This document shows, piece by piece, positions 2,107 through 46,503 of a stretch of DNA of 64,000 bases. The notes under the pieces were generated by a model that searched no databases, was not told the DNA's origin, and was given only the letters and a program-made list of their open reading frames with translations. Position 1 is the stretch's first letter, and each line of letters opens with the position of its first letter. The stretch spans positions 80,621 through 144,620 of the forward strand of contig CAYWGC010000002.1 in NCBI GenBank assembly GCA_964457755.1. Direction: 5' to 3'. A program made the position numbers and the translations under genes. Origin of the DNA: an uncultured Thermodesulfobacteriota bacterium. Its GTDB lineage: Bacteria; Desulfobacterota; Anaeroferrophillalia; Anaeroferrophillales; Tharpellaceae.

Positions 2107-3291
2107 TTACTGGAGACTGAAGACTGAAGGCTGACCCCTGCTTTTAAGATACTGTGCAGTTGTCAGATTGTTGCATGGGGTTAGTATCAGGTCCTGCCAA
2201 CCCTTTTTACGGGCGTTATTTATGATCTCTTGTAAGGTCACAATCGATTTTTGTTTCTGTTTGAGTGAGCCGGTTAAAGGTGGGATTTCAAATTTAAAAA
2301 TTATTCTCTCTTTTTCATGGACCTGTCCATTTTTAAAGAGTTTTGTCATCGTTGACGTAAGTTCTCTTTCTGAGGTCAGTTCCAACTCCCTTCTGATTCT
2401 TTCTTGATAAGCCATAACCATCAGGTAATCAGCTTCTGATGCAGCTATTGATGCCAAAGTAGAGGCAAACCAGTCGCGTCCCCAATCAGCATTATAGAGA
2501 AGTTCGTAATGGATATTTTGGGCGCAGAGGATTTTTGGTTTCAAAGTGCGGCAGATCGTGAAAATTTCATTGGCAAGGTGCTGTAGATTTAAGGCTTGTT
2601 GTTGGCGCCAGTTGTAAAATGGGGCTCTGTAAGGTTTGATTTCTCTGGCGGATCTGTAGATATCTGCTGGTATTGGAACGACTGTGTGGTTTATCTTTTT
2701 AAAGCCCTGATTGTGTCTGAGGATGAGGTCGTCCTGGAGAAGGATGCCGTCAATTGGGTAGGCGGCGAGATCTTTAAATAGTTGCTTGAGGAAGGCAATA
2801 TTTTCTGGAGCTTGAGGATCCATAAGGTTTTTTTCACGTATAAAATTACCTCGCTTTTTATCATAACTTAAGACTTGCGGTCTTAATTTGCGGGCGTAGT
2901 TGGCTTTTAAAGTTGTCATCCAGGCGAAGATCTTGAGTCCGTTACGGTGCGCGATTTTGCAGGCTGGAGTTAGGATGTCGGTGATGGTTGGAGACTGGTC
3001 GGTATTGAAGTAGACACCTTCCTGGAAATGTTTGCGAACCGACTCTTTTACCAGGTTATGAAAGCGATCTTTGCGATTATGAAAAACCCGCAGGATAATA
3101 GTATTATAGCCCAATTTTTTAAGACCCTGAAAGTACTTCTCGCAAGTGTCCCAATTGTCACCTTCAAGAATCGAAATCTGGGCTCCGATTAAAGGTTTTT
3201 CTTGTGTGAGCGCGGTTTCGGGAATGGTTATGGCAAGAACTCCGAAAATTAAAAACTTCAGAATTTGTAAAAACAGTTGACTTCGTATCAT
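2107..3291 (-). CDS. Secreted/lipoprotein-like glycoside-hydrolase-like protein (YddW/DUF4015, GH10-like TIM barrel family), function uncertain
   Basis: An N-terminal hydrophobic signal segment is followed by a ~370-aa domain whose composition resembles the family-10-like glycosyl hydrolase-like proteins. Recognition is weak. Confidence 0.4.
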   Translation of the reverse strand: MIRSQLFLQILKFLIFGVLAITIPETALTQEKPLIGAQISILEGDNWDTCEKYFQGLKKLGYNTIILRVFHNRKDRFHNLVKESVRKHFQEGVYFNTDQSPTITDILTPACKIAHRNGLKIFAWMTTLKANYARKLRPQVLSYDKKRGNFIREKNLMDPQAPENIAFLKQLFKDLAAYPIDGILLQDDLILRHNQGFKKINHTVVPIPADIYRSAREIKPYRAPFYNWRQQQALNLQHLANEIFTICRTLKPKILCAQNIHYELLYNADWGRDWFASTLASIAASEADYLMVMAYQERIRRELELTSERELTSTMTKLFKNGQVHEKERIIFKFEIPPLTGSLKQKQKSIVTLQEIINNARKKGWQDLILTPCNNLTTAQYLKSRGQPSVFSLQ

Positions 3292-3370
3292 TAATTTAGA
3301 CCTGAAGGGTTACAAAAATAACCACAAATAGACACAAATAAACACAAATGAGAGTGATTTGGTAACCGAA

Positions 3371-4759
3371 TCATGAAAAGAGTGCTTCAGCCAGTTCCTG
3401 CAAGGTGGAAATCTCTTTTAATCCCTGATTTCCACTTGTTTGTGATGAGAGGTTGCCTTGCGGGACAATGATCTTTTTGAAGCCGAATTTCAAAGCTTCA
3501 CTTAAGCGCTGATCGATCATATTTACGCGTCTGATCTCTCCAGTCAGCCCGACCTCTCCGATAACTAAGGTTGTTGCCGGTATCACCTGATCCAGGTGGC
3601 TGGAAAGAATTGCGGCGATCAGGGCCAGGTCGATGGCTGGTTCGACTACCTTTAAACCACCGACAATATTAAGAAATATATCTTTATTACTGAAATTAAG
3701 GCGCAGGCGTTTCTCCATAATGGCAATCATCAGGGCCGCCCGGTTGCGGTCAATGCCGAGGGTTGTGCGCCGCGGTATACCACCGGAGACGGCAGTGCTG
3801 ACCAAGGCTTGGATCTCGGTCAAAATTGGTCTGGAACCTTCAATTGTGGCACTGACCAGGGAGCCTGCCAGGTTTTGCGGACGCTCATTCAGGAAAATGC
3901 TGGAGGGGCTCTCAACTCCAACAAGACCGCTGCCGGTCATCTCAAAAACACCAATCTCATTGGTTGAACCAAAGCGATTTTTGACGGCTCTGAGAATGCG
4001 GAAAGGGTATTGGGTGTCAGATTCAAAATAGAGAACCGTATCGACCATATGTTCAAGCAGTTTGGGGCCGGCGATAGCACCATCTTTGGTGACGTGGCCA
4101 ATTATAAAGATCGGCGTATTGGTTAGTTTGGCAATCTTGACCAGGTGGGCGGCGGTTTGCCTGATCTGGCTGGTAGTGCCGGGGGGGGATTTTATCTCCG
4201 GGCTGTGGCAGGTCTGGATTGAGTCTATAACCAGGGTTTTCGGTTTGAGTTGCCGAAAATTTTTGATGATCTCTTCAATGCCTGAGGCTGCCAGGAAATA
4301 GAGATGTTCGTTATTGATGCCCATACGTCGGCTGCGCATCTTGCTTTGCCCCGGAGACTCTTCGCCGGAAACATAGAGGGTGATATGCTGGGGAATGCTT
4401 AAGCGGTCGAGGATCTGGAGAAGCAGTGTAGATTTGCCAATCCCCGGATCACCACCTACCAGTACGACTGAGCCTTTGACCAGGCCACCTCCTAAAACCC
4501 GATCAAATTCACTGATACCAGTAGCCTGGCGAGGTTGTTCACTCTCATTAATGTTACTAATCGGAATTGGTACTGCAATATCTCCGAGTTCGCTGATGGC
4601 CGCTATCATCTGCGGGGTTTCATGATCACTTGCGGTTTCAGGAGGGGCCTCCCGCATTGTCTCCCACTCATTACAGCCTGGACATTTACCCAGCCATTTA
4701 GCGCTCTGGTAGCCGCATGAAGTGCAGAAAAAGGAGGTCTTATTTTTTTTGGCAACCAT
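3371..4759 (-). CDS. radA: DNA repair protein RadA/Sms
   Basis: N-terminal C4 zinc finger (CTSCGYQSAKWLGKCPGCNEW), RecA-like Walker A (GGDPGIGKSTLLLQ), C-terminal Lon-protease-like domain. Confidence 0.95.
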   Translation of the reverse strand: MVAKKNKTSFFCTSCGYQSAKWLGKCPGCNEWETMREAPPETASDHETPQMIAAISELGDIAVPIPISNINESEQPRQATGISEFDRVLGGGLVKGSVVLVGGDPGIGKSTLLLQILDRLSIPQHITLYVSGEESPGQSKMRSRRMGINNEHLYFLAASGIEEIIKNFRQLKPKTLVIDSIQTCHSPEIKSPPGTTSQIRQTAAHLVKIAKLTNTPIFIIGHVTKDGAIAGPKLLEHMVDTVLYFESDTQYPFRILRAVKNRFGSTNEIGVFEMTGSGLVGVESPSSIFLNERPQNLAGSLVSATIEGSRPILTEIQALVSTAVSGGIPRRTTLGIDRNRAALMIAIMEKRLRLNFSNKDIFLNIVGGLKVVEPAIDLALIAAILSSHLDQVIPATTLVIGEVGLTGEIRRVNMIDQRLSEALKFGFKKIIVPQGNLSSQTSGNQGLKEISTLQELAEALFS

Positions 4760-4776
4760 GTGTCAGTTCTCAGTCT

Positions 4777-4833
4777 TCAGTCGCCAGTCGTCAGTCACCT
4801 AGTGTCAGGGTTTGCTGACGACTGGCGACTGAC
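4777..4833. other. Inverted-repeat hairpin (~16-bp arms AGTCGCCAGTCGTCAG / CTGACGACTGGCGACT) in the rodA-radA intergenic spacer
   Basis: Direct reading of complementary arms at 4779-4794 and 4815-4830. A T-run follows on the + strand only, so its function as a terminator is uncertain. Confidence 0.45.
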
Positions 4834-4840
4834 AACTGTT

Positions 4841-10424: not shown

Positions 10425-10899
10425 TTATATAACTCTCTAAATTGAAATCTATAGTGTGATTATAGGGGAGTTTGAAGCGGGCAACAGTTCAGCAACCTCA
10501 ACTCCATCCATGCGAAACTTAACAGTCTGTAAAAATCAAACAACTCTTTTTTGGTTAAGTAAATTCTAATCTTTAAAAGCTTTATTATGTTAACAGGGAA
10601 AGAAAGAAAATTCAAGAAAAATAAATGGTTCCGTCATTTTTTTTAAAAAAAGAGTGGTTCAGTTGAAAATAGAAAATCGTTCGATTTTAATATTGTGAAA
10701 AGCTGACTTGACTCCACCATAAGGATGGATTAAATCTCCTGGGTTAACTATTCAGTTTACTTTTCTATTATTGTAAATATTTTTCCATATTTTACGAGTT
10801 GGCCGAAGAGTTACCTTTTTTTTCTTTGCGACCTTGCGCCTTAGCGGCTTCGCGTTTAGTGTTTTTGCTTCCGGCTCACCCGGTTAAGGACTTTAAACT

Positions 10900-24578: not shown

Positions 24579-24860
24579 TTGATGGAAACGAGATTGGCAC
24601 TTAAGGGTGATGTTGCAAATATTGAAACCTGGGATGAGTTTTCACAAGAGCTTAACGCGGCAACTGATTCCGGGGTGGAGAAACTGGTTCTGGATATGGA
24701 GAGGGTAACTTATCTCAATTCAAGTGCGCTGGGCTCTATTGTTAGTGCCCAGAGAAAAGTTGCCGATCGTGAAGGTGAGATGGTGCTGGTCAATGTTTCG
24801 AAAAAATTACTCCAGTTTTTCGAACTCTACAATCTTACGGAAATTCTGACCATCGAATAG
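24579..24860 (+). CDS. STAS-domain anti-sigma-factor antagonist (SpoIIAA/RsbV-like)
   Basis: Typical STAS sequence with the phosphorylatable Ser region (…YLNSSALGSIV…). The ORF-track start is a TTG; an ATG follows at 24582 after a GGAGGG RBS. Confidence 0.8.
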   Translation: MMETRLALKGDVANIETWDEFSQELNAATDSGVEKLVLDMERVTYLNSSALGSIVSAQRKVADREGEMVLVNVSKKLLQFFELYNLTEILTIE

Positions 24861-24920
24861 AGTAATAAATGCGGCTGACCCGAAAATGTTATTTCCAGCA
24901 ACCGGGATTGGGACCTTTAG

Positions 24921-24993
24921 TTTGTGCCCGAACGGAGTGAGGAAGTACCCTTGGGGTGTCCCCTTCGAGCGCCAAGTGAAGCGAAGTTCACTG
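24921..24993. repeat. Copy of a ~45-bp dispersed intergenic repeat unit (GCCCGAACGRAGTGAGGAAGTRCCCTTGGGGTRTCCCC) plus a related flanking segment
   Basis: Nearly identical to two inverted copies at 45800-45843 and 45904-45956 (compared by eye: about 36-40 of 42 positions identical). Confidence 0.7.
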
Positions 24994-25074
24994 ATTTTCT
25001 CTGTCATTTAAGTGCCAATCACAAGAAAGTCCCTCCCCGAGGACTTGCCTGTTTTCCCCTGGGCCCTACTCCGT

Positions 25075-25914
25075 TTAAAAAAGTTCCGATCTTAGGTATT
25101 CGTTCACTTCGCTGAGAATTTCAATAATCATATCACGTTTTTGGGGGAGTTCCGTCGGAATCAATTCAAGCGTGACGGCACCCTCATAGTTGCGCTCTTT
25201 GAGCATGTAGAGAAAACGGGTTAAAGGGAGGATACCGCGTCCTGGAAAGAGATGTTCCCGACCGTGGCCATAATCACTGAAATGGATGTTTTTAATTCTG
25301 CCACTAACTAAAAGGCGTTGGGCTTCGCCGAGAAAGTTGGGGTTGTGGGAACCTATGTGGGTTGTGTCCAAAGTCATGAAAAGATTATGTTTTTCAATAA
25401 AATCAAGCATTTTTTCGGACTTTCTCAGGATGTTTGGGTTGTAGCGAATTCGGTTGCCGATATAGGGCATGTTCTCAAGGGTGACGATGACTTTGCTGTC
25501 GTCGACCAGAGTCTGATAATCTTCAACTTTATTAAACCAGCGCCGAAAAGTAAATTCCGGTGGGAACCAGAACGGGGGATGGAAATTTACTAGTGGGATC
25601 TCAAAATCTCGGGCCAATTCAACGCATTTAATAAGTGAGGTTCCACTATGGCCCCAGCCATGGAGTTTGAAAAAAGGGGCGTGGATCGAAAGGATTGGGC
25701 AGATAGGGAGCAGTTTTTCAATGATTTTATGGGGGTTACTATTCTCGAAAAGAGCGTTGATGATCAACTCGACTCCATCATAGCCACATTCAGAAGCGAT
25801 CTCGAAGATCTCGGAAAGTTTCCTTGTGAAGAGGGTGCCAGCAGAAAGGACGACAGCCCGTCTGGGTGCGATGATCCGGGGCAACGGGTTAAATGTGTGA
25901 TCTGAATCCATCAC
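25075..25914 (-). CDS. Sugar phosphate isomerase/epimerase (xylose-isomerase-like TIM barrel, AP endonuclease family 2)
   Basis: Composition and length typical of TIM-barrel 'sugar phosphate isomerase/epimerase' proteins (…GYDGVEL…, …HAPF…, …VTLENMP…). Confidence 0.65.
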   Translation of the reverse strand: MMDSDHTFNPLPRIIAPRRAVVLSAGTLFTRKLSEIFEIASECGYDGVELIINALFENSNPHKIIEKLLPICPILSIHAPFFKLHGWGHSGTSLIKCVELARDFEIPLVNFHPPFWFPPEFTFRRWFNKVEDYQTLVDDSKVIVTLENMPYIGNRIRYNPNILRKSEKMLDFIEKHNLFMTLDTTHIGSHNPNFLGEAQRLLVSGRIKNIHFSDYGHGREHLFPGRGILPLTRFLYMLKERNYEGAVTLELIPTELPQKRDMIIEILSEVNEYLRSELF

Positions 25915-34595: not shown

Positions 34596-36227
34596 TCAAC
34601 TGAGCCTGGCAACAACCTTCTCTCTTAAAGCGAGTTTGTCGATTTTACCCGAGCCCAATAGGGGCCATTCATTGTCGTTAAAAAATAGTACATTTTTGGG
34701 GATTTTATAGCGGCTGATCTTGTCTTTGCAGAAGGTGGCGACATCTTCTTGGGCAAAGCTGTGATCTTGATCGGTTTCGATTATAGCGGTAACGGCTTCA
34801 CCCCATTTTTCATGGGGAACCCCAACAACCTGGACGTTTCTAATGCCGGGCATGCTTTCAAGGAAAATTTCAACTTCTTTTTCCGAGACATTTTCACCGC
34901 CGGTTTTGATCATCATCTTGTAGCGGCCGCGGTAAGAGATATTGCCATTTTGGTCTTTACTGCCGTAATCTCCAGAATGGAAAAAACCATCATCGTCAAT
35001 GGCTTTGTTGGTTTCTTCCTGGTTTTTATAATAGCCTTTGAAACGACTCCATCCACGCAGGCAAAGTTCACCGTTTTCACCTGCATCAACCTCTGTTCCG
35101 GTAACCGGATCGACCACTTTTACAGCGATTCCGGGCCAAGGTTTACCATTGGTATATTTTCTGATTTCGGGATCCCTTTCTTCAAACATCATGCTCACAC
35201 CGGTACCTTCACTGAAACCGTAGTGGTGCGCTATAAGTTGGGTGCCGGGGAATACTTTTTTACATTTATCGTACCATTCTGGCCCCGCCGCAAGGAGAAT
35301 ATTTTTGACGGATTTAAGGTCGTGCTTTTCGAATTCAGGGGCGTTGGCAAGAGCGTTGAAATGGGCTTCGAAACCGAAGAAAAAATCAATTTTTTCGGTT
35401 TCTATGATCTCCAGAACCTCCGTTGCCACAAATTCATTGATATGGAGTTGGTAGCCACCGGTCAGTGCTCCTAAAGGAAAATAGACACATCCGGCAATGT
35501 GATAAAAAGGGGAGTTGCAGAGGAGACGGCTGCCGGGCTCCATCCTGAAGGTTCCCGGTAACAGGTGCCAGCCGATGCCAAGGAGGCTGGTGTGGCTAAG
35601 CATCACACCTTTCGGAAATGCCGTACTTCCAGAAGTGAAAAGAATATTGCAGGTATCGGTTGGGGATCCAGCCGCTATCATTGCATCAATCTCTGGTTCG
35701 CTGTATTTAGGATCGGCTGTCTGGAGTTGGAAAAAATCATAGGCGTAAGGATATTTCTGTTCTGTGGGACTAAAACAGATGATTCTCTCCAAGTCGGGGA
35801 GTTCTTTTGATTTGACGTTACGATCTTTCGATGCCGTGATCTCCGGGTCGACTTCACTCAACAGTTGTATGTAATTATTTGGTTTGAGTTGATCTGTCGT
35901 GATCAGGGTTCGTATATCACCCTGGCGGAGAAGATATTTAACCTCTTTGGCGCGGAAGTTGATGTTTATCGGGATGATCACGGCACCGATGATATGCAGG
36001 GCGTATTTAGTGAAAATCCATTCCGGTGTGTTGCCGAAAATGGTTCCTACGTGATCACCCTTTTTTACCCCTAATTCTCGTAGCTGGGCCGCCAGTTTTC
36101 TGACCTTTTGGTAGAGTTGGACATAGGTCATTTTTTCATTTTTGGCAGCAATGGCAATTTTGTTCTCATGAATATCAGCGGCATTACGTAGTGCCTGTGC
36201 GATGGTAACGTTTTCCCAGGTTGACAT
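34596..36227 (-). CDS. AMP-dependent acyl-CoA synthetase/ligase (fatty-acid/short-chain acyl-CoA ligase family)
   Basis: AMP-binding motif (…FTSGSTAFPKGV…), …GYG.SE…, C-terminal …GKI.K… lysine. Confidence 0.8.
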   Translation of the reverse strand: MSTWENVTIAQALRNAADIHENKIAIAAKNEKMTYVQLYQKVRKLAAQLRELGVKKGDHVGTIFGNTPEWIFTKYALHIIGAVIIPININFRAKEVKYLLRQGDIRTLITTDQLKPNNYIQLLSEVDPEITASKDRNVKSKELPDLERIICFSPTEQKYPYAYDFFQLQTADPKYSEPEIDAMIAAGSPTDTCNILFTSGSTAFPKGVMLSHTSLLGIGWHLLPGTFRMEPGSRLLCNSPFYHIAGCVYFPLGALTGGYQLHINEFVATEVLEIIETEKIDFFFGFEAHFNALANAPEFEKHDLKSVKNILLAAGPEWYDKCKKVFPGTQLIAHHYGFSEGTGVSMMFEERDPEIRKYTNGKPWPGIAVKVVDPVTGTEVDAGENGELCLRGWSRFKGYYKNQEETNKAIDDDGFFHSGDYGSKDQNGNISYRGRYKMMIKTGGENVSEKEVEIFLESMPGIRNVQVVGVPHEKWGEAVTAIIETDQDHSFAQEDVATFCKDKISRYKIPKNVLFFNDNEWPLLGSGKIDKLALREKVVARLS

Positions 36228-36444
36228 TAGATTCTCCTTGTTTCATGAATTTGCGCAGTTAGCCCGGCAAAGGAAGTGGGTCTTTAGAAATTTTTCGTAT
36301 ATTTTAATTTGTGGTGAAGTTGTTGTTATTCTCAGATCAAGGCATTGTTTGAAAGTAAACATAGGTATACACTTGGTATTCCGAGGATTGTTTTCAAAAA
36401 AGATTACGCTGAGCTGGGGGAAAAGAGCATATTCTGACAGTCTC

Positions 36445-37782
36445 CTAGTTGAAGAGCACGCTCGGCAGCCAGGTGATGATGTCGGGAAAGATGATTAAGA
36501 GTGCTAAGCCTATTAACTGGAGGCCGACAAAGGGGATTATGCCACGATAGATATGCCCAATCTCAATCCCTTCAGGTGCAACCCCTTTGAAATAGAAGAG
36601 AGCGTAGCCGAAGGGAGGGGTTAAAAATGAGGTTTGTAGATTGACGCACATCAACATCGCAAACCATAACGGGTTGAAATCGAGTTCCATAGCAATAGGC
36701 GTGAAGATTGGTACGGTGACCAGAAGGATGGCCGCCCAATCGATGAACATCCCCATGAAAAAGACGATAGCCATCATAATTGCCAGTACCATAAAGCGGT
36801 TGAGACCGCCGCCTAAGAGAAAGTCGGCGACGACATCACCTCCGCCGATACTGAGAAAGACGGTACTGAAGAATTTACCCCCGATAAAGAGCATCATAAT
36901 CATAGCTGTGGTTCTATAGGTTGAGATGCTCGCCTCTTTTAATACTCGCCAATTAAGTTGTCGGTTAGCCAGAGCTAGAAACATGGCGCCGGCGACACCT
37001 AAAGCCGCGGCTTCAGTCGGGGTCGCAATGCCGGTCAAGATGGTGCCCATTACGGTCAGGATAAGACCTAAGGGGGGGACTAATGATTTTAAGGTCATTG
37101 CCCATTTTTGCATGGCAGTGTGGGTGCGATCACTCTCTTTAATGGGGGGGCCGATTTTGGGGTTGATATGGCAGAGAACGACAATGTAGATAAAATAGAG
37201 GGTGGCAAGTAAGATGCCAGGTAAAATAGCCCCAGCGAAGAGGTTGCCGACCGAGGTCTCTTTATAACCGGTCAGGCCACCATAAATAACCAGCATGATA
37301 CTCGGGGGGATAAGAATCCCCATAGTTCCAGAGGCGCAGATAATGCCGGCGGTCAGCTCTTTCTGGTACCCTTTTTTGATCAGGGCGGGGCCTGCCATTA
37401 GTCCCATAGCGACGACTGAGGCTCCTATGATTCCGGTGGTGGCGGCAAATACTGTGCTCACAACGACTACGGCCAAACCCAGGCCTCCCTTTAAACCGCC
37501 AAGGACAATATAGAGGGATTCAAAGAGTTTTTCCGATACTTTTGAGCGATCCAGAACCTGGGCCATCATGATAAAAAGGGGTACCGCGACGATGACATAG
37601 TTTTGCATCAAGCCCCATGAATTATTGGCAAACATGTCAAAGAGGATGGGGACATTAAAACCGTTGTCTATAAGTCCAAAAAGTGCTGCAACTGCAGCCA
37701 GGGTATAGGCTAAAGGATGACCCATGACGATAGCTATAATCAGGGTGGCGAACATCAGGATAGTGAGGACTTCTGCACTCAT
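36445..37782 (-). CDS. dctM: TRAP transporter large permease subunit (DctM family)
   Basis: 445-aa ~12-TM protein with DctM family composition. Its start overlaps the dctQ stop. Confidence 0.88.
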   Translation of the reverse strand: MSAEVLTILMFATLIIAIVMGHPLAYTLAAVAALFGLIDNGFNVPILFDMFANNSWGLMQNYVIVAVPLFIMMAQVLDRSKVSEKLFESLYIVLGGLKGGLGLAVVVVSTVFAATTGIIGASVVAMGLMAGPALIKKGYQKELTAGIICASGTMGILIPPSIMLVIYGGLTGYKETSVGNLFAGAILPGILLATLYFIYIVVLCHINPKIGPPIKESDRTHTAMQKWAMTLKSLVPPLGLILTVMGTILTGIATPTEAAALGVAGAMFLALANRQLNWRVLKEASISTYRTTAMIMMLFIGGKFFSTVFLSIGGGDVVADFLLGGGLNRFMVLAIMMAIVFFMGMFIDWAAILLVTVPIFTPIAMELDFNPLWFAMLMCVNLQTSFLTPPFGYALFYFKGVAPEGIEIGHIYRGIIPFVGLQLIGLALLIIFPDIITWLPSVLFN

Positions 37783-40888: not shown

Positions 40889-42364
40889 TTGTTTCTTGTT
40901 TTTCAATCTTTTTTCCTTGAACACCGATGTGATTTTAGGGCTTTTAAGTTATTTTGGAAAAGTGGGGGAGCAGTGTCAATAAAACTCTCAAGAGCAGAGC
41001 TTCTTTCATCTTTGGAACTTTGTCACCTGATTATTGATAATATTCATAATGGTGTTATTGTGACCGATGCTGATGGATATATAATTTTTTTCAATAAACT
41101 TTACGGTAGGTTTTTAGGCATTGATCCTGCAGCTCAAATCGGTAAACATACTACTGATGTTATCGAGAATACCCGGATGCATATAGTTGCCAAAACGGGC
41201 ATAATTGAGATTAATAATGCCCATCATTTGAAAAATCAGGATATGGTGGTCCATCGTATTCCGATTAAAAAAGATGGTAAGGTTGTTGCTGTTTACGGTC
41301 AGGTGATATTCAAAGATGTTGGTGATGTGAAGAAATTGGCAGGAGGTCTTTCTCTACTTGAAAGCAAAGTAAAGCTTTACGAAGAGGAGATTTTATCGTT
41401 ACGTTCGACCCGTTATACCTTTGATAGTATTATTGCTGAAAGTTTAGTAATGGGACAATTAAAAAGGGAGGCTTTGAAGGCGTCTGCAACATCTTTATCA
41501 GTTCTGATTACTGGGGAGTCGGGAACTGGTAAAGAGATGTTTGCTCAAGCTATTCACCATGCCAGTAATCGACGGATTCACCCTTTTGTTCGGATTAACT
41601 GTGCTTCTATCCCTCGAGAATTACTTGAAGCTGAGCTTTTTGGTTATGAAAAAGGGGCTTTTACCGGGGCGCTTACTTCCGGTAAGCCAGGTAAATTTGA
41701 ACTGGCTAATCAAGGTTCTATTTTTCTTGATGAAATTGGTGATATGCCGCTTGAAATGCAGCCCAAATTGTTGCGGGTTCTTGAAGAGAAAGAGTTTGAG
41801 CGGGTTGGAGGTATCTCGCCGGTTCGTTCAGATTTTCGGCTTATTGCTGCGACTAATCATCGTTTGATTGAAAAAGTGAAAAATGGTTCATTTCGGGCTG
41901 ATCTCTATTATCGAATCAAAGGTATTCCTCTTGTCATCCCACCATTGCGGGAGCGGCGTGAAGATATTATTTTTTTAGCCCGTGCTCTTTTGCAGGAAAT
42001 GATTCAAGATCTATTTAGACCTGAGATTACTTTTAGCTCTGAGGCGGCCAACGCTTTACTTCTTTATGATTGGCCTGGTAATGTGCGAGAGATGAGCAAT
42101 GTCTTGGGCCAGATTCTTGCTAGCATTGAACATGATGTTATTTCGCTGGCTGATATTCCTTTTTATATAAGGCAGCAGCAGGGGGTTACAGCAAGTCTCA
42201 GTTCGACTCAGAGTTTGGCTCAGATTTTGGCATCTACCGAGCTAAATACAATTCGTCAGGCCTTGGAACTGGCCCAGGGAAATAAAAGTAAAGCAGCTCG
42301 GCAGCTCGGCATCCATCGTACACTTCTCTATAAAAAAATGAAGCGTCATGGTCTGGAATGTTAA
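40889..42364 (+). CDS. Sigma-54-dependent transcriptional activator (PAS sensor + AAA+ sigma-54 interaction domain + Fis-type HTH)
   Basis: GESGTGKE Walker A, GAFTGA sigma-54 contact motif (…EKGAFTGAL…), C-terminal HTH (…AARQLGIHRTLLYKKMK…). The true start may lie downstream of 40889. Confidence 0.9.
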   Translation: MFLVFQSFFLEHRCDFRAFKLFWKSGGAVSIKLSRAELLSSLELCHLIIDNIHNGVIVTDADGYIIFFNKLYGRFLGIDPAAQIGKHTTDVIENTRMHIVAKTGIIEINNAHHLKNQDMVVHRIPIKKDGKVVAVYGQVIFKDVGDVKKLAGGLSLLESKVKLYEEEILSLRSTRYTFDSIIAESLVMGQLKREALKASATSLSVLITGESGTGKEMFAQAIHHASNRRIHPFVRINCASIPRELLEAELFGYEKGAFTGALTSGKPGKFELANQGSIFLDEIGDMPLEMQPKLLRVLEEKEFERVGGISPVRSDFRLIAATNHRLIEKVKNGSFRADLYYRIKGIPLVIPPLRERREDIIFLARALLQEMIQDLFRPEITFSSEAANALLLYDWPGNVREMSNVLGQILASIEHDVISLADIPFYIRQQQGVTASLSSTQSLAQILASTELNTIRQALELAQGNKSKAARQLGIHRTLLYKKMKRHGLEC

Positions 42365-42385: not shown

Positions 42386-42449
42386 GAAAAACACTATGTA
42401 GCATAATGGCTATATAGGTGTAGTCATTATGCTACATAGTGTTTTTTTG
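42386..42449 (+). terminator. Rho-independent terminator: 22-bp perfect stem (AAAAACACTATGTAGCATAATG…CATTATGCTACATAGTGTTTTT) followed by a T-run, after the sigma-54 activator gene
   Basis: Read directly from the sequence. Confidence 0.8.
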
Positions 42450-42510: not shown

Positions 42511-43071
42511 TTGATGGATTTTTTGAGTACTGACATAGGTGGAGCCTGTTTGATCAAGCCTGATATCTTTCGTGACAGGCGTGGTTTTTTTATGGAGACC
42601 TTTAACCAAGGTAAGTACGCTGATGGAGGGGTGCCTTACAGTTTTGTTCAGGACAATATGTCCTTTTCTGAAAGGGGGACGGTGCGCGGTCTTCACTATC
42701 AGCTTAAACAGCCGCAAGGGAAATTGGTCTTTGTCTTGAAGGGGGAGATTTTTGATGTTGCCGTTGATATCCGGCGAGGTTCACCGAGTTTTGGCTGCTG
42801 GATCGGTTATGATCTTTCTGAGAGTAACCGGCACCAACTTTTTGTGCCTCCCGGTCTGGCCCATGGTTTTATGGTGTTGAGCGAGACTGCGGAAGTCTAT
42901 TACAAATGCACTGACCTCTATTCCCATGGAGATGAGTACGGGTTGCTCTGGAATGATCCTGAAATCGGGATAGAGTGGCCCGGTCAAGAGGTTATCCTTT
43001 CGCAAAAGGATACCTCTCTACCGATCTTGGCCACAATCAACAAAGAACATCTGCCGGTCTGGCAGGGGTAG
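42511..43071 (+). CDS. rfbC: dTDP-4-dehydrorhamnose 3,5-epimerase
   Basis: Cupin-fold RmlC motifs (…FMETFNQ…, …RGLHYQ…, …LFVPPGLAHGF…). Confidence 0.9.
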   Translation: MMDFLSTDIGGACLIKPDIFRDRRGFFMETFNQGKYADGGVPYSFVQDNMSFSERGTVRGLHYQLKQPQGKLVFVLKGEIFDVAVDIRRGSPSFGCWIGYDLSESNRHQLFVPPGLAHGFMVLSETAEVYYKCTDLYSHGDEYGLLWNDPEIGIEWPGQEVILSQKDTSLPILATINKEHLPVWQG

Positions 43072-43190
43072 TATTTTAACCACAAAAGGGCACGAAAAAT
43101 CACGAATTTTTTTTGTGTATGTTCGTGGCTAAAAATTAATGTCGGAACTATTTGGATAGATTGTTTAGTAACGGCTGTTCCGAATTAGAA

Positions 43191-44720: not shown

Positions 44721-45677
44721 ATGTCGGTGAGTGGTCATGAAAATTGTTTTGTCTGTCAAGATGGATTTTGTTTATCAGATATAGATGATTGTCAGTTGGG
44801 GGTCGAGGCGAAGATGGTTTTTGGTTTCGACCATGAAGGGTGGCAGGGCATCCCTCATGGCGGCGTTGCCATGACGGCTCTTCTCGATTTGGCAGATCAT
44901 TGCTGGTTACGGCAAAAAGGTGTGAACCTGGTCTACCCCTTAGAAATTGACTGGCGTTTTGCTGACAGCGTTATTATTGGCAATGAGATGAATTTAAAGG
45001 CGCTTGTTAAAGACGAAAACAGCCTGCTTTTATCGATGCGGCGCCAGGGGAGTGATAAAATATATCTGAGTGCTGAAGTCAAAATGGGCACGGAAGCCGC
45101 AGGGGTTGACTATCCTCTTTTAGACCCGGAAATACTAATGGAAAACCGGGCCCGGCATCAGGCTTTGGACGTTTACGAAAATTGTTTTGTCTGTGGTTTG
45201 AAAAGGCAAAAACCGGGTTTGCAACGCCGCTTTTTTAGAAAGATGGAGATCTCTGGTGAACAATCGGCTGTGATTGTGCGTTTTGGCGGCGTAGCCGATT
45301 CGCAACTGATTGATTCGTTTCAACAGACTCGGGGAATTTTGCATCCCGGTGTCTTAGCGGCTCTTTTGGATGAACTTTGTGGCTGGAGTGGGATTCTGGC
45401 CGAAGACCTATATGGCTATACGGTGCGTTTTAAATTACAGATTAACCGTTTGCCTGCTCTTGGTGAAGAGCTTTTCGGGATGGCACCAACTCCTTCAGTA
45501 CGGGGGCGTGGCGCTCGAAAATTCTACCATCCTCAAGGTGCTCTATATCATAAAAAAGCCGATGGCACTCTGGAGATTATTGTGGTCGCCAGGGGTCAGT
45601 GGATGGCCCGGGAAGAGTTACGGCAGCAGTTTGATGAGACTCATGTCGAAGAGGATCTTTCAGAGGTTGTATTTTGA
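44721..45677 (+). CDS. Hypothetical tandem hotdog-fold (PaaI/YbgC-like thioesterase-like) protein with an internal duplication
   Basis: Two halves each beginning with …ENCFVC… and containing …HGG/HPGV…LLD-type hotdog motifs. Confidence 0.45.
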   Translation: MSVSGHENCFVCQDGFCLSDIDDCQLGVEAKMVFGFDHEGWQGIPHGGVAMTALLDLADHCWLRQKGVNLVYPLEIDWRFADSVIIGNEMNLKALVKDENSLLLSMRRQGSDKIYLSAEVKMGTEAAGVDYPLLDPEILMENRARHQALDVYENCFVCGLKRQKPGLQRRFFRKMEISGEQSAVIVRFGGVADSQLIDSFQQTRGILHPGVLAALLDELCGWSGILAEDLYGYTVRFKLQINRLPALGEELFGMAPTPSVRGRGARKFYHPQGALYHKKADGTLEIIVVARGQWMAREELRQQFDETHVEEDLSEVVF

Positions 45678-45799
45678 GCCTGATATAGACAAAAGGCACA
45701 AAAAAACCGTCTCGCTGTTGGTTCAGGATACTAAAGGGTTAAAATTTGTAACTATTCAGCCAACCTACCGTAAAGTTGGGCTTCAGACTGCCTCGATGC

Positions 45800-45956
45800 G
45801 GGGATACCCCAAGGGCACTTCCTCACTTCGTTCGGGCGCAGCCTCCAGACCGGGCTTTCACCCTAAAGGGCACAAGAGCCCGTGGCGGGCTGAGCCGCGC
45901 TGTGAGCGAAGCGAGGAAGTACTCTTGGGGTGTGTCCCCCTCGAAGTGGGCGAAGC
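45800..45956. repeat. Two inverted copies of the ~45-bp dispersed repeat unit (arms 45800-45843 and 45904-45956) separated by ~60 bp; a hairpin-capable MITE/REP-like element
   Basis: The arms are reverse complements of each other, and both match the unit at 24921-24965. Confidence 0.7.
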
Positions 45957-46014
45957 AAAATTCGACGCCTTTTTTAGTAGCTTTATGCGAAGACTGAATA
46001 GTTACATTGTTTTT

Positions 46015-46503
46015 TTAGTTCTCTTTTTTAAAACTTTTAGAGGCAAGGTCAATGTCTTCGGGGCAGAAGATGAAGAGGGTTTTACCTTCGGATGGTGATA
46101 CCGAACCATAGACATAACTGATGTTGATGCCAGCATCGCCGATCTTTTTGGCCGTGGCTGCCAGGGTGCCGGGTTCGTTGTCAAGTTCGATGGCCATGAC
46201 CGGGGTGATTTCGTAGAGGTAGTCAGCATTAGCAAGCAGATCTAAGGTTTTATCGGTATCGTTTGTCAATAGACGAACCAGAGCAAATTGCGCTGACTCT
46301 TTCTGGATCATGCTGTAACTTGCAGCTGTAGCATGGCGTTTTAGAGCTTTGCCACGTGCTTTGAAAAGTTCCTCGACGTAGCTGGTGGCATCTTGGATAG
46401 TGATGGCATCGATGTTGATATTGTTCTCTGAAAACATTAAAGTGAGTTTGGCCAACTCGCCGGGAACATTTTTAAGAAAAAGGGTTATTTCGGTACGAAC
46501 CAT
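46015..46503 (-). CDS. ACT-domain protein (two tandem ACT domains)
   Basis: Two ~70-aa ACT-like beta-alpha-beta-beta-alpha-beta repeats (…LKNVPGELAKLT…NNINIDAITI…; …LDNEPGTLAATAKKIGDAGINISYVY…). Confidence 0.65.
   Translation of the reverse strand: MVRTEITLFLKNVPGELAKLTLMFSENNINIDAITIQDATSYVEELFKARGKALKRHATAASYSMIQKESAQFALVRLLTNDTDKTLDLLANADYLYEITPVMAIELDNEPGTLAATAKKIGDAGINISYVYGSVSPSEGKTLFIFCPEDIDLASKSFKKEN

Follow-up and report, generated by a model that had tools for sequence, protein, structure and literature searches.

The window, i.e., the whole 64-kb stretch of DNA that was analysed, carries copies of a short repeat at two loci. Locus 1 lies between two convergent genes, a STAS gene at 24579-24860 (+) and a xylose-isomerase-like TIM-barrel gene at 25075-25914 (-). 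Locus 2 is likewise flanked by convergent genes, a 318-aa ORF at 44721-45677 (+), for which no Pfam match was obtained, and an ACT-domain gene at 46015-46503 (-). The first-pass annotation had described a family of about 45 bp at these two intergenic loci with an inverted pair at the second, and this description was borne out by sequence matching and by a repeat finder. The 19-nt core, GAGGAAGTRCYCTTGGGGT, is found at 24939 (+), 45806 (-), and 45913 (+), three occurrences against 0.03 expected in the 64-kb window. Exact matches to a 38-nt consensus were located at 24926-24963 (+) and 45800-45837 (-), where shuffled sequences are expected to give 0. The repeat finder independently returned the pairs I1 (41 nt, 90%) and D13 (30 nt, 87%), and a covariance model built from relatives recovered those three copies alone in 64 kb. 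The repeated unit, which we call the module, and the larger repeats in which it sits, its carriers, are as follows.

24908-25012 (+): locus 1 carrier, ends approximate; GGGAC..TTTAGTTTG-[module]-TCCCCTTCGAG..hairpin..CTGTCATTTAAG
24925-24958 (+): module copy 1, 34 nt, TGCCCGAACGGAGTGAGGAAGTACCCTTGGGGTG; covariance-model match of 48 bits, E 4e-10
24975-24992 (+): carrier hairpin, AGTGAA-gcgaag-TTCACT, a predicted stem; the "second related segment" of the first-pass annotation
45748-46005 (+): MITE-like palindromic element, 258 bp; from TIR search, family copies, 9-copy alignment and DNA fold
45748-45759 (+): left terminal inverted repeat (TIR), GTAACTATTCAG, 12 bp, perfect
45805-45838 (-): module copy 2, 34 nt, type A, CGCCCGAACGAAGTGAGGAAGTGCCCTTGGGGTA; left arm of the MITE; covariance model
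45839-45897 (+): MITE apex between both modules; 9-copy alignment
45898-45932 (+): module copy 3, 35 nt, type B, CGCTGTGAGCGAAGCGAGGAAGTACTCTTGGGGTG; right arm of the MITE; covariance model
45940-45969 (+): carrier segment CTCGAAGTGGGCGAAGCAAAATTCGACGCC, the locus 2 copy of the "second related segment"
45994-46005 (+): right TIR, CTGAATAGTTAC, 12 bp, perfect

Copy 1 is flanked by ...TTTG on the left and TCCCC on the right, its boundaries having been transferred from filled and empty sites of other copies. Type A copy 2 and type B copy 3 differ at ~7 positions. All three copies are intergenic and occupy the 3′ regions of convergent genes; their length of 34-35 nt would disrupt a reading frame, and they are probably inert passengers in 3′ intergenic DNA. 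Two ORFs, 45370-46098 and 45776-45997, which had been flagged earlier as spurious products of the repeat, do exist and cross the locus 2 repeat, and they are best read as artefacts. A scan of the window for tRNA genes gave neither tRNA nor tmRNA. Prediction of intrinsic terminators gave none in locus 2, and a terminator-like hairpin at 25027-25046 near locus 1 falls outside the repeat. A lone TIR-like 12-mer at 10744 was examined and no element was found there. The Logan contig L105, which stems from an independent assembly of the same organism, ends at window position 45821, i.e., within module copy 2, as multi-copy repeats are expected to stop short-read assemblies.

Carrier repeats at the two loci

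The carrier at locus 1 is roughly 105 nt long and has the architecture of the Ca. Tharpella elements L007 and L074, in which the flanks GGGAC..TTTAGTTTG and TCCCC..hairpin..CTGTNANTTAA recur. In relatives the carrier hairpin reads GGCGAA-gcaaag-TTCGCC, with compensatory changes relative to the window. The second related segment reported for both loci was thereby recovered as a hairpin, and it is part of the carriers. Locus 1 alone is not unusually structured (z +0.35 and +0.8).

A long hairpin-capable structure had been proposed for locus 2, and folding agrees with the proposal. Positions 45780-45975 fold as RNA into one long hairpin of −106 kcal/mol (z = −6.9), the opposite strand gives −100.8 kcal/mol (z −6.2), and the whole of 45748-46005 folds as DNA with −61 kcal/mol (z = −5.8). 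The same 12-bp ends, paired 130-260 bp apart, are present in many Desulfobacterota-like and Ca. Tharpella MAG contigs, with 10 or more paired-end copies in other genomes. The family copies, of 130-258 bp in several MAGs, are small, non-coding and multi-copy. No consistent direct repeat indicative of a target-site duplication was found flanking eight MITE copies, and among the loci examined there was no autonomous copy or parent insertion sequence with the same ends. An extra segment of the apex with CACCCTAAAGGGCA (45859-45872) is missing from most family members.

The composition of locus 2 was clarified by the 9-copy alignment. Three sequences (the window, L038 and L017) have a module in the left arm, which is empty in L091, L042, L057, L064 and L025; in the right arm, L017 is the only member without one. 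Filled and empty arms differ by exactly CGC...GGGGTR, with clean edges and no target duplication, and the empty MITE sites read ...TG|T..., e.g., GAGCTG|TGATCCCC and CAATG|TCCCCGC. From this arm-by-arm presence and absence it follows that the "inverted pair" of the window consists of two insertions, one of type A and one of type B, which occupy mirror-image targets of the palindromic carrier. Locus 2 resembles a long hairpin because one module sits in each MITE arm. The earlier description had merged two elements, 34-35 nt modules and a 258-bp MITE around them, whose own TIRs were overlooked.

Anatomy, insertion sites and reach of the module

The module has the form CGCYNYGA-[small variable hairpin]-GAGGAAGTRCYCTTGGGGTR, in which the hairpin is optional; the full parse of the copies is (G)CGCYNY-GA-[hairpin P2]-GA-GGAAGTRCYCTTGGGGTR(T). 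It measures 34-35 nt in the window and 27-51 nt elsewhere. P2 can be as short as 1 bp, closed by a GAA loop, or form a stem of up to 9 bp, and some copies are without it. One pair of P2 was observed as GC 70, AU 8, GU 5 and CG 1 times, another as CG 67, GC 5 and UA 3 times, so the pairing of P2 is maintained by two-sided changes. Alignment of bare modules by MAFFT misplaced the long P2 stems and was left out. The ends are well defined, with CGC... and ...GGGGTR in 96 of 100 contexts. The apparent invariance of the 21-nt core is inflated because the core served as the search key.

Modules of 34-36 nt as single-stranded DNA reach only −1.3 to −3.0 kcal/mol (z −0.7 to +1.0), the 27-nt minimal form gives a clear hairpin of −5.5 kcal/mol (z −1.9), and the energy-based consensus fold of −3.6 kcal/mol is uninformative. 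Two pairings are available to the GGGGTR tail. The first is a local hairpin with GTRCYC, which is 100% paired, its variable positions having been preset as R/Y by the search pattern; the second is a G-U-rich, long-range helix with the 5′ CGCYNYGA, 90% paired, from which P2 emerges as a side branch. The two are mutually exclusive, exist on the shown strand only, and may fit single-stranded DNA or RNA alike.

Insertion is seamless at TG|T in either orientation and without target-site duplication. Across 100 non-redundant contexts, T was found at −2 in 68%, G at −1 in 84% and T at +1 in 90%. Direct comparisons are afforded by L022, where an empty motif GGCATGTGGAAA adjoins the filled GGCATG[module]TGGAAA, and by a Methylocystaceae repeat (L034), where the empty GGAGGTGTGTCCCCC can be set against its filled version. 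With filled and empty sites of this kind, the repeated unit is a very small non-autonomous mobile insert, and we consider it very likely that the module moves independently of the carrier repeats in which it is nested. Preference for palindromes as targets was considered and rejected, as flanking inverted repeats are barely enriched (mean 2.43 vs 2.15) and the excess is largely due to the ACATG|T target in Campylobacterota. The orientation of copies relative to GC skew shows a weak bias (22 vs 10), which is confounded by reading-frame selection.

The repeat extends far beyond the two-locus scale on which it was first described, to many phyla and, within them, to in-frame positions in genes, tRNA T-arms and tandem arrays. 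A scan with the 21-nt core, with one genome per species, gave at least 104 loci, and the covariance model found 122 copies in 0.7 Mb of loci against three in the window. Among the matches listed, the module is carried by Campylobacterota including Sulfurimonas, Ca. Tharpellota, Thermodesulfobacteriota and "Deltaproteobacteria", by rumen and gut Clostridia and Propionigenium (Fusobacteriota), by Gracilibacteria and Parcubacteria (Patescibacteria), and by Methylocystaceae, Thiotrichales and Acidiferrobacterales (Pseudomonadota). The module was present in each of the phylum-level groups sampled, and near-identical copies of its core are common to at least seven such groups. This spread is not a binning artefact, since isolates such as Sulfurimonas indica NW8N and Propionigenium maris DSM 9537 are included. 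It is accordingly not the case that the window holds the only copies and that these correspond to conserved coding sequence; relatives carry many more.

The window gave no Rfam match at gathering score, the element and the arrays gave noise only at E up to 10, and the Clostridia loci gave nothing at gathering or permissive thresholds. There were zero module matches in 2.9 million viral contigs and none in 72,556 plasmids. No shared neighbouring gene emerged when 873 ORFs from the 104 loci were clustered, and a crude HUH...Y motif screen of loci L001-L105 and the window gave no Y1-transposase-like ORF. Searches of open-access text by exact DNA core, encoded peptides and topic returned nothing specific.

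In Campylobacterota the module lies in long ORFs of real enzymes, where it contributes 11-12 extra residues at positions that differ among homologues. Hosts include HypF, nitrite/sulfite reductase, a sulfatase, an aldolase-SDR, LpxB, a PriA-like helicase, an ExoX-like nuclease, an HI0933 flavoprotein and UbiD. Among four homologous flavoproteins the insert was found at three different positions, one protein being without it. The ortholog P0007, 75% identical to the L037 protein, has exactly 11 residues fewer, a difference that corresponds to the 33 nt of the module, without any duplication. About 25 to 28 copies in relatives are in frame inside real genes, in both orientations. Among the matches listed, the length is divisible by 3 in 28 of 36 open-frame copies vs 25 of 81 elsewhere, and about 25 of those 36 use one of two frames, HPKSTSS..LTAH in antisense or CAVSDSEEVLLGC in sense. 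The pattern of length and frame fits selection acting on translated inserts. A protein-word search for the encoded peptide with 11 candidates gave no matches.

A different setting is found in Clostridia, where the module is found within an incomplete duplicate of the 3′ part of a neighbouring tRNA (Gln, Leu, Met, Asn, Glu), in the T-arm, either exactly between G53 and T54 or within the T loop. In L039 a block that runs from the T loop to the 3′ end and continues with a terminator, a spacer and the module occurs four times, with a period of 196 nt. The tRNA-linked duplications span 100-200 nt, and simple insertion does not account for them. Head-to-tail arrays of the module itself also occur. 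L019 holds at least four 36-nt units, and a junction scan of metagenomes gave at least 24 arrays, mostly with a 27-nt period and otherwise with periods of 35, 36, 44 and 47 nt. The 27-nt array unit CGCCCCGAAGGAAGTGCCCTTGGGGTG is a simple hairpin and represents the minimal unit. Many of the single metagenome matches are chance matches in GC-rich genes.

Mechanism and competing readings

The explanation that we favour overall, with moderate confidence, is a tiny mobile insert nested in carriers and mobilised in trans. The insert has neither coding content nor an accompanying gene, hence the mobilising enzyme would have to be encoded elsewhere. A trans-acting single-strand nick-and-join reaction could move the module, and the candidates for the enzyme would be an IS200/IS605 or RAYT-like Y1 transposase, an IS91/Helitron-like Rep or a relaxase-like nickase. 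Nick-and-join is proposed on account of the precise ends (5′ CG..., ...TG/TA 3′) without target duplication, the right junction that recreates the TG|T target, the existence of head-to-tail arrays, and helices that accept G-T/G-U pairs on one strand only. The absence of target duplication disfavours a typical DDE cut-and-paste transposase. Assignment of the reaction to an HUH-type enzyme, favoured by the conserved sequence 5′ of the right-hand cut, is tentative. The hairpins of 34-36 nt modules are poorer than IS200/IS605 ends or REPs, and the left-flank target is merely "TG" against 4-5 nt for known Y1 transposases, both of which speak against such an enzyme. RNA-based copying, IS110-type recombination or serine-recombinase routes may also be considered.

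The first-pass annotation had called the family REP/MITE-like. The MITE-like mobile family stands, whereas the REP part does not, given a weak palindrome, the absence of a tag and copies in coding sequence. In its fuller form the REP/REPIN reading would make the unit a palindrome and the locus 2 pair a REPIN doublet, spread by a single-copy RAYT, whose gene typically has REPs on either side. Small units between convergent genes, an inverted pair with a ~60-nt spacer and a long hairpin, and the lack of target duplication all speak for it, and the 27-nt minimal unit is indeed an imperfect palindrome (CCCCGAAGG / CCCTTGGGG). The pair, however, is enclosed by a larger element that ends in 12-bp TIRs of its own and whose arms are filled or empty independently, the two copies belong to different subtypes, A and B, and the 34-36 nt module folds only weakly by itself. 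REPs have at one of their ends a conserved tetranucleotide, GTAG or CGTC (Di Nocera et al. 2013, PMC3733652), and the module has neither. Copies that lie in frame in coding sequence, arrays that are direct and not inverted, and the absence of a RAYT-like ORF near any copy at the loci examined are further difficulties, and REPs are genome-specific whereas the 21-nt core crosses phyla. We therefore regard this reading as unlikely.

A structured RNA, either a cis-regulatory or protein-binding motif or an RNA copied into DNA by a reverse transcriptase, would account for several features of the anatomy. The compensatory changes and large length variation of P2 are like those of a peripheral RNA stem, the GA...GA that flanks it gives a tandem sheared-pair arrangement, the long-range and terminal helices rely on G-U pairs that become C-A mismatches on the other strand, and the core is strongly conserved across phyla. 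Against this, the R/Y positions of the search pattern themselves give rise to the one-sided G-U changes in the core, and the consensus fold has next to no stability (−3.6 kcal/mol). Inside genes the copies stand in both orientations, open and in frame, which fits translation and not removal; their position relative to genes is inconsistent, and an Rfam family is absent even at E up to 10. Overall, the RNA reading is improbable.

Relaxase substrates offer another comparison. The module could be a mimic of a relaxase or Rep nick site, a linearised "oriT-only" unit cut and rejoined by a MOBQ-like relaxase. When the two ends of the unit are joined, 3′ to 5′, the resulting GGGGTGCGCCCTGA includes the MOBQ oriT core GTGCGCCCT, and real array junctions match 9/9 bases of the MOBQ consensus NWACCNNTAAGTGCGCCCTYNN (PMC3832669). 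The internal AAGTGCCCTT resembles AAGTGCGCCCTT (PMC10333310), and a hairpin upstream of a conserved single-stranded stretch is the arrangement of relaxase substrates. Nevertheless, with respect to the MOBQ core TAAGTGCGCCCT, the motif (9/12) is recreated at type A head-to-tail junctions only; type B modules start with CGCTGT and not CGCCCT. The RSF1010 nick is TAAGTGCG/CCCTCCC, or GTGCG/CCCT (PMC4814116), and it falls 2 nt from the module boundary TG|CGCC, the boundary being upstream and set by several empty sites. P2 is ~22 nt from the module boundary, while the MOBQ nick lies 8 nt after the inverted repeat, and the sequence of P2 varies whereas relaxases read their inverted repeat. Nor was a match found in the 72,556 plasmids or 2.9 million viral contigs, or a relaxase gene nearby at the loci examined. 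The nick offset and the lack of the motif in type B have demoted the MOBQ idea to a minor rival, which we hold to be quite improbable. That the 45-nt unit is just the best-conserved part of one MITE family, with both loci as its fragments, is very hard to maintain, for although both loci share the CGAAG...TTC hairpin segment and GGGAC/GTCCCC flanks, otherwise intact MITE copies hold zero or one module and the module occurs without MITE sequence in Campylobacterota genes, Clostridia tRNA copies, Gracilibacteria and Methylocystaceae.

Place among known elements and meaning

Closest in function to the module are the Rickettsia palindromic elements (RPEs), REP/REPIN elements and IS200/IS605-derived miniatures. 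RPEs are about 100-150 bp long and clearly palindromic and, to our knowledge, are confined to Rickettsia. Like the module, they are short non-coding repeats that have spread within genomes and occur in intergenic DNA as well as in housekeeping genes; in the latter they lie in frame, contribute a short peptide and survive only in stop-free frames. In relatives, as with RPEs, the insert is present in some homologues and not in others with the frame kept, the window copies being excepted. In contrast to RPEs, the module is 27-51 nt long, barely palindromic in its common form, and its core recurs in seven or more phylum-level groups; head-to-tail arrays and the targeting of tRNA T-arms likewise set it apart.

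With REP/REPIN elements the module shares a size of tens of nucleotides, a hairpin, possible inverted doublets, the lack of target duplication and dependence on an enzyme in trans. It differs in that its doublet consists of two insertions into a TIR element, in its weak palindrome, and in lacking both the tag and the confinement to extragenic DNA. The carrier at locus 2 is like a MITE in its 130-260 bp length, perfect 12-bp TIRs, intergenic position, multiple copies and long hairpin. Unlike a MITE, it shows no consistent target duplication at the eight copies, and it serves as a landing pad for a smaller element.

The ends of IS200/IS605 elements, PATEs and Helitron/IS91 elements resemble the module in seamless insertion by a short fixed motif without duplication. 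IS200/IS605 and rolling-circle elements further have in common with it asymmetric ends, a hairpin near the 3′ end, strand-specific structure and tandem multimers. As in IS200/IS605-type insertion, empty and filled pairs differ by the module alone, and the left-flank motif of the module is just 2 nt long. Known minimal IS200/IS605 derivatives measure 100 nt or more; their target is 4-5 nt long, and near each end they have one of a matching pair of subterminal hairpins, the structures that TnpA recognises. The whole module, by comparison, can be 27 nt with only TG|T as its target; it has P2 and a weak 3′ hairpin. A further parallel is found in the GC clusters of yeast mitochondria, which are inserts of about 30-50 nt, rich in GC and prone to form hairpins, that are scattered over an AT-rich genome and also interrupt its coding regions, and for which AT-rich target duplications have been reported. 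Their likeness to the module lies in being small, GC-rich and hairpin-prone, but they are organellar and eukaryotic, and their sequence is unrelated to it.

Taken together, the module is a small non-autonomous mobile repeat that is unusual in its size, its exact insertion at TG|T, its conservation across phyla and its nesting. A further-reaching claim, which we consider rather doubtful, is that it might be the smallest self-defined bacterial mobile DNA unit yet (27-36 nt), cross-phylum in reach and moved by a mechanism undescribed for such substrates. In one variant, an HUH nickase or relaxase would treat the hairpin-plus-tail as both origin and terminator and paste it into TG|T, sometimes as rolling-circle concatemers, with exposed loops such as tRNA T-arms preferred. 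In the alternative variant, a reverse transcriptase would copy a small structured RNA. If either were true, essential proteins would be remodelled by added loops of 9-12 residues.

In annotation, spurious ORFs and breaks between contigs can be traced to the module. Short in-frame inserts in LpxB, PriA and HypF can be flagged as selfish DNA and not as lineage-specific protein features, and the presence/absence alleles are useful as strain markers. The module nests not only in other repeats but also within tRNA-like arms and within itself. This nesting, together with the exact ends, the lack of duplication and the cross-phylum 21-nt core, makes it a sharp probe for a trans-acting enzyme. Should the mechanism turn out to be an ordinary, RAYT-like one, the module would still be a well-defined new family with an unusual host range.

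Module arrays and tRNA-linked copies

On metagenome contigs, units of the module, the short mobile insert with an optional internal hairpin (P2), were found arrayed head-to-tail with a period of either 27 nt, where the unit is CGCCCCGAAGGAAGTGCCCTTGGGGTG, or 47 nt, where the units carry a long P2. A 42-nt insertion was observed in the terminal loop of the last unit of the L127 and L147 arrays.

Metagenome contig loci with module arrays
L159:8441-8540
L135:67-175
L184:5200-5435
L141:596-730
L127:9824-10010
L147:3021-3210

In MAGs of Clostridia, an intact tRNA gene was observed to have a partial copy of its 3′ part lying 100-200 nt downstream. The module is positioned in these partial copies exactly at G53|T54 or within the T loop, and in L039 a tRNA-linked block of 196 nt is present four times. 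The tRNA duplication itself is not accounted for by simple module insertion.

tRNA-linked partial copies with the module, Clostridia MAGs
L039:2275-3117, minus strand
Further loci: L006, L016, L026, L028, L030, L054, L079, L101-L103

Further repeats in the window

The apex of the palindromic MITE of the window holds a second small segment, CACCCTAAAGGGCA(C/T)AA (45859-45872), which is missing from most other members of the MITE family. The segment was also noted at L009, L015, L067, L076 and L104, and at L025:3032-3102, where it sits within the P2 hairpin of a module. It may be another nested mini-insert.

Other repeats and a shared stretch were also noted.

Additional features of the window
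42387-42446, inverted repeat AAAAACACTATGTAGCATAATGGCTA / TAGTCATTATGCTACATAGTGTTTTT (26 nt, 96% complementary, 8-nt loop), flanked by ORFs 40889-42364 (+) and 42511-43071 (+)
2109-2143 and 4754-4838, inverted pairs I2 (35 nt, 80%) and I7 (24 nt, 92%, gap 20 nt), built from successive short repeats of the CAGTCTTCAGTC / GACTGAAGACTG type, both at ORF ends (2107-3291 (-), 3371-4759 (-))
3306-3359, CACAAAT(A/G)NA short tandem repeats, intergenic, upstream of ORF 2107-3291 (-)
43064-43107, stretch 70% similar to these tandem repeats, adjoining the stop codon of ORF 42511-43071 (+)
36326-36449, ~120 nt with 79-81% identity to L038:2446-2564 and L033:7829-7950, both on contigs of 'Pseudomonadota bacterium MAG240', overlapping ORFs 36202-36498 (+) and 36445-37782 (-)

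The CACAAAT(A/G)NA repeats and the similar stretch may be protein-binding sites. The stretch common to MAG240 may be part of a conserved gene or a further shared repeat.

The module at a start codon in Sulfurimonas

In four Sulfurimonas genomes (L044:259-312; L045; L068; L092), two genes of the same direction are separated by a short gap that holds an antisense module. The genes possibly belong to the dTDP-rhamnose pathway, as suggested by an NAD-binding motif. The GTG start codon of the downstream gene overlaps the 5′ edge of the module, and the module therefore provides the sequence immediately upstream of the start codon.
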